Shown one piece after another: positions 349-37,353 of a stretch of DNA of 64,000 bases. Numbering within the stretch: the stretch's first letter is position 1; every line of letters starts with the position of its first letter. Below the pieces are notes generated by a model. That model had not been told where the DNA came from. It saw only the letters and a program-made list of their open reading frames with translations, and made no database searches. This stretch comes from Porphyridium purpureum (Eukaryota), in assembly GCA_008690995.1 (NCBI GenBank), contig VRMN01000004.1, positions 1,426,001 through 1,490,000 on the forward strand, read 5' to 3'. The position numbers and the translations under genes are program-made.

Positions 349-654
349 GTTGGTCTCAACCCTGGATAGGCGCTTCTCAGCCTCCTGAAGAACTACGCTT
401 ATTGTACTGCGCGTGCATCAGTGGCGTTCAGTGGCGCGTGAGACTGTGGCCGTCCCGGGAAAAAGTACGAGCAAAGAAATCAAGCAAATGTGCTCGCGTG
501 CCGTGAATCTCGGCACAACCAGAAAGGGAGGGCAGACAAGCGACAAAAGGAGACATTTACATCACCATTTCACAAACTCGACACACAAGGATCGACCCGA
601 TTTCGAACAAAGTCGGAGCAAGATAGCAATCTCTGATTCTCCGCGTAGAAAGCC

Positions 655-34576: not shown

Positions 34577-36139
34577 CTAGGCATCCACGGGCTCTTCCGG
34601 TGCATTCGCGCTCACGATCTCAACTTCAAAAATCAACAGTGCATTTGGCGGGAGCATTTCCCCAAACATGTCCGTCATTCCTTCACACGCTGACGGATGC
34701 ACATAGAGGATCTTCTCCTCTCCCTCCCGCATCCCTACAATACCCGTTTTCAACGCAGCCGGCGCGGAATCAAGTGGAAGCGTCAGAACCTGCACCATGT
34801 TGCTGTCATTCTCTGCAGCGGGGCACGTGAAAAACACGCGCTTATCTAAAAGACGTCCCTGAAGGATCAGCAACACCGTTGCCGTTTCAAGCACCACGGG
34901 CGCGTTTTCATCCAGTTCGTCACTGGGGAAGGATTCGGCGAGCACCTTGCCGGGTTCGAGCACGGTCAAACTGCTCGACTTGGTCTTGAAGAACTCATCG
35001 GCGTCCGCAAGGTCTTGCTCGGCAACCAGTTCTGCAGCGATTTGATGCAGCCCCACCATCTGCTTCTCATATTCAGGATAAGACATGGGGAAGTCCTCGC
35101 CAGCCGCTGCACTTTTCAATCCCTTGACCACAAGGCCCACATCCAAGCCCAGACCCGAGCTCAGCAAGGACTGGCCGAGTGCGTGGCCATATGCCTCTGC
35201 AATCTTGCCCATGTCCGTGCCGGCGGGCGCCACGTCCGCGGCCGTCTTTCGCTTCGTTCCCAGACCTGAGGCTGCGCGCGTGCTTGCTCCTCCTGCTCTT
35301 CTCGCGCCTGCCGATGATACATTCGCACCGCTCTGTTCAAACATGGCCTTTGCCGCCTCCATCGACTCGTGCCACTTGCTCGGGTCGTTTACCACCTTGG
35401 CAAATTCCGGATCTGACTGCAGCCACTGGCTCAGCATGGGATTCTGGCGAATTGCTTCGCGCGACGCCTCCTGCTTTTCCGGATCATTTAGGTATTCTTG
35501 CATCGCTTCGCTGTTCCACAACCCGCTCATCATGTTCGGGAGCTGTGCCATGATGTCGGCAGCGCCGCCAGCGCCGCCAGCGCCTCCATCGGCCTGGTTT
35601 CCGCCGCCCAAGCCGCCGAGCATCTGCATCATCGCGTTCAAATCCATACCTCCCCCAGCCGCTGCTGGATTCGCGCCGGCAGCGCCAGCGGCTCCTGCGC
35701 CACCCATCATCTGCTGCATGAGCGCATTCAAGTCGGGCGCACCCTGCTCGGCACCGCCGCCAAGACCCATCGCATTCAGCTGGGCCATCATATCCGCGAC
35801 GTCTGAGTCGGCGGTCGCGGTGGCCCCTGCGGTCGCGGTGACCGCGCCTCCTGCCGCGGTCGTTGCCGCAGCGGGTGCGGCATCCTTCGCCGCGGCGGTC
35901 GCATTCGCGCCCATTCTGCGCATCACATTAATCGTGGAGCCGTCGGCGACGCCATACTTCTCGAGCGTCTGCGCAGGCTCAAGCTTCTGGCCCTTGAACA
36001 AGAGCATCTGCCGCTCCGCTCCAATCCCGCTCAGCGACGCAATCTGGCCCATGAAGTTCTCCACGGTGTCGCCACCGGACACTCGCAGCTCGTAGCTCTT
36101 CCCATTGAAACACTTCACCTTGACGAAAAAGGGCGCCAT
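34577..36139 (-). CDS. Ubiquitin-like + STI1-like + Mip/FkpA-type FKBP fusion protein
   Basis: UBL domain (VKCFNGKSYEL...QMLLFKGQKL...TLEKYGVADGSTI), Met/Gln-rich ubiquilin-like middle, FKBP_N (KIAEAYGHALG) and FKBP_C (GMREGE..LYVHP...LPPNALLIFEVEIV). Confidence 0.85.
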   Translation of the reverse strand: MAPFFVKVKCFNGKSYELRVSGGDTVENFMGQIASLSGIGAERQMLLFKGQKLEPAQTLEKYGVADGSTINVMRRMGANATAAAKDAAPAAATTAAGGAVTATAGATATADSDVADMMAQLNAMGLGGGAEQGAPDLNALMQQMMGGAGAAGAAGANPAAAGGGMDLNAMMQMLGGLGGGNQADGGAGGAGGAADIMAQLPNMMSGLWNSEAMQEYLNDPEKQEASREAIRQNPMLSQWLQSDPEFAKVVNDPSKWHESMEAAKAMFEQSGANVSSAGARRAGGASTRAASGLGTKRKTAADVAPAGTDMGKIAEAYGHALGQSLLSSGLGLDVGLVVKGLKSAAAGEDFPMSYPEYEKQMVGLHQIAAELVAEQDLADADEFFKTKSSSLTVLEPGKVLAESFPSDELDENAPVVLETATVLLILQGRLLDKRVFFTCPAAENDSNMVQVLTLPLDSAPAALKTGIVGMREGEEKILYVHPSACEGMTDMFGEMLPPNALLIFEVEIVSANAPEEPVDA

Positions 36140-36377
36140 CCTGCACCTACCAGCCGACGCACGCACTCGCTCTCCACGCCCCTCGTCTCTCTCCCACCCA
36201 ACGCCACCACACCTTGCTCTCTCGTCTCTTCCCCCGTCTATCTCTTGCCCCCTTCTTCCCCGTCTTAACCCATCCTTCCAGATCTCGCCCGTCCTACTAA
36301 ATTCACTCCCGTTCCTAGACTCCGACCCACAACCAGCCTGCGCACGGCCGCGCACATCGTCGCACCTTTCGCCCACA

Positions 36378-36411
36378 TTAACTATAGAAATAGATATATA
36401 TATTTTAAATT
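36378..36411 (+). promoter_or_regulatory. AT-rich TATA element, putative upstream Pol III promoter of the permuted tRNA
   Basis: TTAACTATAGAAATAGATATATATATTTTAAATT, exceptional in this GC-rich window; TATATATA at 36395-36402 lies about 25-30 nt before the pre-tRNA leader. Confidence 0.7.
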
Positions 36412-36441
36412 CTCGTTCCATTGTCCCAATCCAGCGAAATG

Positions 36442-36548
36442 CCGCAGTGGGAAACCGCGCGAGTTCGAATCTCGTCACAATCATGCTTGGGACTTCCTCG
36501 AAGACCTTTCGATTGTGTGGCCGAGTGGTCTAAGGCGCTGTGTTAAGG
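36442..36548 (+). tRNA. trnL-AAG: Circularly permuted tRNA-Leu(AAG): 3' half 36442-36483, 27-nt spacer, 5' half 36511-36548, junction at 37/38
   Basis: 5' half GATTGTGTGGCCGAGTGGTCTAAGGCGCTGTGTTAAGG; 3' half CCGCAGTGGGAAACCGCGCGAGTTCGAATCTCGTCACAATCA. Acceptor stem GATTGTG/CACAATC (7/7) plus discriminator A; anticodon stem CTGTG/CGCAG; T arm GCGAG-TTCGAAT-CTCGT; class II variable arm. Confidence 0.93.
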
Positions 36549-36558
36549 AGCTGGATTC

Positions 36559-36564
36559 TTTTTT
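36559..36564 (+). terminator. Pol III terminator (T6)
   Basis: TTTTTT immediately after the trailer helix of the permuted tRNA. Confidence 0.8.
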
Positions 36565-37353
36565 GCCGAGGGCACACTCCCGTTGTCTTTTTTCGTTCTT
36601 GGGCTGAGTTCTGTGTTGAGGAGTCTTCCTCTGCGTTGGTCTTCGTCTCTGGCTGCTACCGCATCACTCTGACCTTCATAGCACTCACCTTTTTCAATTT
36701 CACCGCTCTCGTGCTCTCCGCAAGGTGGGCGACGAACGCTGCCGATCCTCTGCTGCCGTTTCACCAACATGTCCGGGATGCTGTGCGGTCGGCCACGTCG
36801 CACTATGGCTCCAGGGTATGAAAAGTGACGTCGGGCACCGTCATACGGTGAGAGTGCAGTAGCCTTCTGAGCGCTGAGAGCTTCAGCAAGCCCAGCTGCC
36901 GAGCCCGCCTTTAATTTTCATCTTTGAGCTGTGAAGGGAAGCACCTTTCTGGTCTTTTGCTCGTCTCGTCTTCCACTGCGCACCGCAACAGTTTTTTTTT
37001 CCTGCGCACAGGCCACCTCATTTCGCAAGACAACGCGAGCAAACTAGACCACGGAATCAGAACCTGTGCCAGTTACTGCGCCGGCTAGACCACATCCTTC
37101 GTTTACTCTCAGATACTGTGGACATTGGACCATTTTTTTCTTCGACGACGAACGGAAGCGGAGGTTGCGAACGGAAGCTGACAACGGTGGCGGAAAGCTG
37201 CCGGACACGAGATAAGCACGCCGCAGAGGCTAGGAAACGGACGGACAACGGACTCTGCGAAGCACGGCGCCTGTTGTGAGCGTTCAAAGAGGCGCCGGTT
37301 CCGCGCTGTGAGGAGTTCTCGCGCGTGCAGGCCACTGGCAAGGTTTGGGCCAC

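Follow-up and report, generated by a model that had tools for sequence, protein, structure and literature searches.

The window, by which we mean the whole 64-kb stretch of Porphyridium purpureum DNA that was analysed, carries on its plus strand a circularly permuted tRNA-Leu(AAG) gene, in which the tRNA's 3' half (36442-36483) is placed upstream of the 5' half (36511-36548) and the two are separated by a short spacer of 27 nt across the acceptor ends, as in the type II layout. From upstream to downstream the locus comprises a TATA-like AT island, a leader, the 3' half, the spacer, the 5' half, a trailer and a run of six T residues. The whole unit measures approximately 135 nt and is closed at both ends by a helix formed between leader and trailer. 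A search pattern describing this permuted layout matched once in the window and in none of 100 shuffled sequences.

The 3' half, as assigned by ARAGORN, contains C38, the 3' strand of the anticodon stem, the variable arm, the T arm, the 3' strand of the acceptor stem and the discriminator A73, CCA not being encoded, while the 5' half runs from G1 to G37 with the anticodon AAG at 36545-36547. Once the halves were re-ordered, ARAGORN returned an 80-nt tRNA-Leu(aag) with a canonical cloverleaf, in which the acceptor (7/7), D (3/3), anticodon (5/5) and T (5/5) stems are fully paired, the variable arm is short, and U8, G18G19, U33 and the T-loop consensus are all present. In genomic order no tRNA was reported at the locus by ARAGORN or Rfam, which is expected because the gene is permuted. 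A scan of the window for T-arm motifs gave five sites, and only the one at 36459 has a tRNA context. When ARAGORN was applied over all junction pairs many of them passed, so the junction is not singled out in this way, and the 29 calls that it made in the window at a lowered threshold, all flagged as possible pseudogenes, were set aside. The intervening sequence (36484-36510), which closes the acceptor stem and is predicted to form a small hairpin, is within the 1-74 nt reported for the spacers of published permuted genes (PMC3978253).

Flanking signals of the kind associated with type II genes, an upstream TATA-like element and a downstream T run, are both found. The AT island at 36394-36411, a predicted upstream RNA polymerase III promoter, is the longest pure A/T run in the 64 kb (18 nt) and sits within its lowest-GC 35-mer, G+C along the window being 52-61%. 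It is followed by a CAA triplet (36427-36429), and both the spacing rule that relates a TATA element to the start of transcription and the CAA start motif of plants lead us to predict A36428 or A36429 as the first transcribed base; A36428, with which the helix also begins, lies at a distance of 29-33 nt from the possible TATA starts at 36399, 36397 and 36395. The T6 run at 36559-36564 is the predicted polymerase III terminator, one of 17 runs of T6 or longer on the plus strand of the 64 kb.

A tRNA of this specificity is needed, since CUU and CUC together account for 453 of the 1224 leucine codons in 19 open reading frames of the window. The published tRNAscan table for P. purpureum, of 30 rows, lists only CAA and TAA as leucine readers and thus no reader for CUN codons, and has nothing for Asn, Asp, Cys, His, Thr or Trp (PMC10496412 Table S4d). 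Judged from sequence, the permuted Leu(AAG) gene would fill a real gap in the P. purpureum tRNA set, and the gaps in the list predict that many permuted or atypically spliced genes have gone undetected.

Leader/trailer helix and splice junction

A preliminary description of the locus had proposed that leader and trailer pair into a bulge-helix-bulge (BHB) splice motif. All of its coordinates are correct, and the leader strand (36428-36435, h') matches the trailer strand (36550-36557) exactly as its Watson-Crick reverse complement, with eight of eight pairs and no G-U pair or mismatch. This 8-mer is the sole run of at least five Watson-Crick pairs between leader and trailer among all registers scanned, and the folding model gives it a pairing probability of 0.74-0.99. 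Across the window, 312 of 12,750,000 position pairs start a run of at least eight Watson-Crick pairs (2.4e-5). Random real segments gave such a helix in 6 of 400,000 trials at the strict register and in 112 of 400,000 with 15 registers allowed, and shuffling the flank letters gave 27 and 153 of 400,000, respectively. The 8-bp helix is not due to chance.

The 3+4+3 spacing of the motif is likewise as proposed, with two 3-nt bulges and two flanking helices, of 5 bp and 8 bp, in register. The bulges are G36-G37^A (36547-36549) and U-G^C38 (36440-36442). Six leader bases (36436-36441) separate the helix from C38, four of them facing positions 32-35 and the last two belonging to the bulge, and a single trailer base (36549), the third base of the 5'-site bulge, separates G37 from the helix. 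The predicted 3' cut, which the two bulge bases precede, would therefore fall at 36441/36442, and the predicted 5'-site cut, deduced from the register, at 36548/36549.

The claim of a full BHB geometry holds for this spacing and fails for the centre. At the four central positions U32/A36439 and U33/A36438 are pairable and A34/A36437 and A35/G36436 are not, such that two of four pairs are possible, and these are disfavoured by the folding model, in which the two U-A pairs have a probability of 0.12-0.14 and forcing them costs approximately 4.5 kcal/mol (-29.6 vs -34.1). The strict archaeal motif (hBHBh') has the same 3+4+3 spacing and two flanking helices, but it requires a central helix of 4 bp, which is not present here. 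In the in silico fold that the preliminary description had called for, the 8-bp helix does form, whereas the junction is a 7x7 internal loop without a central helix. The A-I pair claimed for U32 can form, its partner being A36439, third from the end of the leader, at a probability of 0.12-0.14. The junction is of the relaxed 'no H' type, and so is still a BHB-like leader/trailer motif in the sense that covers strict, relaxed and 'no H' forms.

Within Soma's classes, a C. merolae intron likewise has the 'no H' form at 37/38 (PMC3728597). Eukaryotic endonucleases are described as using the tRNA body together with the proximal anticodon-intron pair, the rest of the motif being relaxed, and in the eukaryotic substrates described only that proximal pair appears to be conserved (PMC10485636). 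Because the eukaryotic enzymes rely on these two features, the weak centre would be no obstacle to cleavage. The junction resembles a canonical 37/38 intron with an A-I pair in its 3-nt bulge at the 3' site and in the placing of U32 opposite the third-last base (PMC10485636). It differs in that a canonical intron is released, whereas here the 'intron' is open and forms the two ends of the transcript, so that splicing would circularise the tRNA.

The exact cut sites have an alternative. G36548 and G36441 are the same letter, and because of this, cuts at 36547/36548 and 36440/36441 would give an identical ligated product; the sequence of the junction alone therefore cannot discriminate the cut sites of the preliminary description. 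The register of the helix favours the 37/38 junction over the 36/37 cuts that give the same product. Folding of the whole precursor had a z-score of -0.47, with 67 of 200 shuffled sequences folding as well, and in this model the global stability of the precursor is no evidence either way.

Related loci and the history of the helix

A pattern search of metagenome sequence gave 24 loci, of which 12 were tandem tRNA arrays and were dropped before junctions were counted. The pattern required a T run no further than 28 nt away and is thereby biased to short trailers. The 12 remaining loci (L005, L010, L011, L012, L014, L016, L018, L020, L021, L022, L024 and L025, each at approximately 380-500 on the matched strand) are permuted tRNA-Leu genes, with the anticodon AAG in five and UAG in seven, spacers of 6-9 nt and very short trailers; they are more AT-rich than the window, with a local G+C of 35-49%. 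They fall into four junction types, not all of them independent. U32 is pairable with the third-last leader base in all four (U-A in three and U-G in one), while the outer helix in strict register amounts to 0, 0, 3 and 0 bp. Outside that register these types do have looser helices, often ones that make use of the T run. On these sequences, it appears that the outer helix is not a universal requirement.

One of the dropped tandem tRNA arrays, L017, contains a tRNA-Leu(AAG) gene (436-540, minus strand) with an intact 25-nt intron at 37/38, and this intron has a 7-bp helix in exactly the register of the window's leader/trailer helix. The preliminary description had suggested that the two termini mimic a 37/38 intron opened in its loop, and the geometry matches that of this one intact example, which is consistent with the suggestion. 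In a viral collection the single match to the permuted-Leu pattern proved to be a tandem tRNA array. Matches to tmRNA on five of the metagenome loci were weak, far below the family threshold, and were rejected. We also observed, on a giant-virus contig (L001, 225-252), a lone D-arm fragment of Leu/Ser type followed by an A run, lying between two tRNA-Ser genes.

Two histories could explain the helix, namely selection for processing, or inheritance from the intron of a duplicated gene. In the intron-duplication model a single intron supplies leader and trailer, one from each of its ends (PMC3978253). It had been claimed that the helix is independent evidence of selection outside the mature tRNA, and this claim is not borne out in that form, as under the duplication model the two strands are complementary from the outset and three of the four other junction types do without the helix. 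Nevertheless, ongoing selection on the helix is likely from the sequence, because eight clean pairs run from the predicted start to the terminator.

Folding in silico bears on the same question. When the leader 8-mer was shuffled, the anticodon stem was formed (P>=0.5) in 8 of 300 sequences, and when complementarity was restored by a compensated trailer it was formed in 279 of 300. However, the anticodon stem also forms in the tRNA body stripped of its flanks (P 0.78), and the mature tRNA comes out misfolded in this model (P 0.01). The test is thus a weak one and, within the model, says only that this particular trailer would be harmful if left unpaired. The idea that the helix is an obligatory clamp for the anticodon stem was on these grounds not retained as a firm claim.

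Proposed processing of the precursor and rival explanations

We think it probable that the locus is a permuted nuclear tRNA-Leu(AAG) gene whose 8-bp helix likely holds the ends of the transcript in the manner of an opened 37/38 intron, the endonuclease cutting at both sites and a ligase circularising the product. Cutting and circularisation of the precursor by the splicing machinery had already been put forward in the preliminary description, and the proposal fits the locus and would match the type II pathway as published (PMC3978253). By analogy with C. merolae and green algae, transcription of the precursor by RNA polymerase III would be driven from the TATA element. The leader/trailer helix would hold the ends of the precursor in register and keep the trailer from mispairing, while, as in other eukaryotes, it is probably for the most part the tRNA body and the U32-A pair that would set the cut sites. 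Both termini would then be cut by the tRNA splicing endonuclease, G37 would be ligated to C38 to give a circle, and RNase P and tRNase Z would take out the spacer, with CCA addition to follow. In C. merolae and green algae the precursor, the circle and the mature tRNA have been detected by RT-PCR and northern blots (PMC3978253); the C. merolae circles are thus established by experiment, whereas the gene described here is known from its sequence alone.

RNA was surveyed over 36150-36850 in three raw-read runs (20-25% of each) and one contig run, which gave 44, 38, 20 and 2 records and a mean depth over the gene of 0-1.6, apparently from mRNA libraries. No read covering the joined junction was found in any of the four runs, whose libraries look like mRNA and are ill-suited to tRNA, and the flanking transcripts are covered by reads as such libraries would give. 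In run X22 two antisense reads match only approximately 36443-36476 of the 3' half, an extent estimated from binned depth, and two reads of the run continue in sequence unlike the window; they may derive from another Leu tRNA gene that shares positions 39-66.

Three other explanations were weighed. The gene might be real and matured through a circle, with the helix a dispensable leftover of an ancestral intron stem and the endonuclease using the body and the U32-A pair only. Three of the four other permuted Leu junction types, which lack a strict-register helix and retain the U32 pair, speak for this, as does the ability of the body alone to fold the anticodon stem (P 0.78) and the duplication model, in which leader and trailer begin as two ends of one intron (PMC3978253); moreover, the permutation may be young, as six other red algae carry an unpermuted Leu(AAG). 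We nonetheless regard a dispensable helix as unlikely, given that all eight pairs between the predicted start and terminator are clean and that an unselected helix would decay unless the event was very recent, and also that loss of the leader strand in the presence of this trailer misfolds the precursor in silico.

Much less probable still is that two intron-containing tRNA-Leu genes once stood in tandem and that the locus, made up of the 3' exon of the first and the 5' exon of the second, is what is left of them, dead and making no tRNA. All conserved tRNA positions and stems are intact, the order that a permuted unit needs is kept, with the TATA element before the 3' half and the T6 run behind the 5' half, the stretch 35800-37300 showed nothing left of the outer exons, and the published P. 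purpureum tRNAscan list is without any CUN reader (PMC10496412). What such a remnant would account for is the lack of transcript and junction reads, in what are apparently mRNA libraries, and the two reads confined to approximately 36443-36476, which suggest a related Leu gene elsewhere. Equally improbable is that the tRNA is made by another route, be it through cuts at 36/37, through joining of halves from two transcripts, or as an unligated tRNA in two pieces. Cuts at 36547/36548 and 36440/36441 do yield the identical product, but on both strands the helix register makes 37/38 the second bond of the bulge, and although permuted tmRNA and rRNA exist in two pieces (PMC3978253), decoding requires that a break in the anticodon loop be sealed by ligation, and the circle has been detected in both red and green algae (PMC3978253). 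Our preference therefore remains with the helix-held precursor that is cut and circularised.

Host range and neighbouring sequence

Of the 34 permuted genes in the 2014 table, more belong to type II than to any other class, and the hallmark of type II is its BHB-like termini (PMC3978253). The C. merolae genes of this class are those for Leu(CAG), Gln(CTG), Thr(CGT), Thr(AGT) and Gly(CCC) (Soma et al. 2007, via PMC3978253 Table 1). As there described, they share with the P. purpureum gene a red algal nuclear location, the order leader, 3' half, spacer, 5' half and trailer, the 37/38 junction, which the helix register favours here, an upstream TATA element, a downstream T run, BHB-like termini, class II tRNA and an unencoded CCA, and the 27-nt spacer compares with 7-31 nt in C. 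merolae. Most C. merolae tRNA genes have TATA-like elements upstream (PMC3978253). In contrast, the anticodon AAG is absent from the table of 34 genes, and Leu(AAG) in C. merolae is an ordinary gene (PMC3978253; PMC10496412). Type II permuted tRNAs are also described from Ostreococcus, Micromonas, Bathycoccus, Auxenochlorella and chlorarachniophyte nucleomorphs (PMC3978253; PMC3673656; PMC12633428; PMC4494063), with seven permuted tRNA genes given for Bathycoccus, and later reports of permuted tRNAs concern Bathycoccus, a prasinovirus, Amorphochlora and Auxenochlorella. In these accounts the green-lineage genes resemble ours in a 37/38 junction, probable in our gene, in the relaxed motif and in the bias to Ser and Leu; their junctions are described as hBH, with the central helix present, whereas here the centre has two of four pairs and it is the outer helix that is strong.

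Leu(AAG) is listed as an ordinary gene in C. merolae, Cyanidiococcus, Galdieria, Chondrus, Gracilaria domingensis and Gracilariopsis (PMC10496412 Table S4). In the passages covered, a 2026 review mentions no red alga other than C. merolae as having permuted tRNAs and gives Chondrus crispus as having none, and PlantRNA 2.0 agrees with it in substance on red algae. Within the literature covered, which takes in few subscription papers, we found no report of a permuted tRNA in Porphyridium or in other red algae outside the Cyanidiophyceae. The motif and the pathway are already known, having been described between 2007 and 2014, and it is the host that may be new. With slightly better than even confidence, we propose that this gene is the first permuted tRNA to be seen among red algae other than the hot-spring Cyanidiophyceae, and that the permutation of Leu(AAG) arose independently and is lineage-specific, in a mesophile that keeps the opened intron stem intact. 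If this is true, the gene would supply the missing reader of CUU and CUC, and further permuted or oddly spliced tRNA genes, a whole set of them, would be expected to lie hidden in the genome.

The finding would leave ideas on how permuted tRNAs work unchanged, and its value would lie in host range and timing. Leu(AAG) is ordinary in the six other red algae, and its permutation in this alga speaks for origins from intron-containing genes that were repeated and recent, as against ancient inheritance. Genes of this kind could also explain the incomplete tRNA sets that standard scans return for unicellular red algae. Moreover, the combination of a strong outer helix with a weak central one would make a clean substrate with which to ask whether the algal endonuclease needs the outer helix, the A-I pair or the tRNA body.

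The neighbouring genes have long unbroken frames and encode eIF2A, a Myb protein, a ubiquitin-like/FKBP protein, a SUMO E1 subunit, NPR2 and a HECT ligase. A conserved phosphatase nearby is identical to its counterparts at 78% in Galdieria, 73% in Rhodosorus, 72% in Pyropia and 71% in C. merolae, some non-algal proteins being likewise 70-73% identical. For eIF2A the matches from Agarophyton, Hildenbrandia and Gracilaria rank above all named non-red proteins. Red algae are thus the best named relatives, though not close ones, and a tree of 30 proteins put the host sister to one transcriptome protein (100/99), at an open fork, and in no one red algal class. A glutathione S-transferase searched at E<=1e-30 had no match but itself.

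Low-depth transcription of the plus strand begins near 36570-36600, just past the T6 run, and single reads start inside the spacer and run through the terminator; no long open reading frame accounts for the plus-strand RNA of the region 36487-36850. A minus-strand transcript ends near 36650. On the other side, the open reading frame of the upstream gene (34577-36484, minus strand) reaches an ATG at 36484, inside the tRNA unit, and gene callers may in consequence annotate the tRNA's 3' half as coding. Reads of this upstream gene stop near 36225-36245 and its ubiquitin domain begins at an ATG at 36139. The protein encoded by this frame combines ubiquitin-like, ubiquilin-like and FKBP domains.
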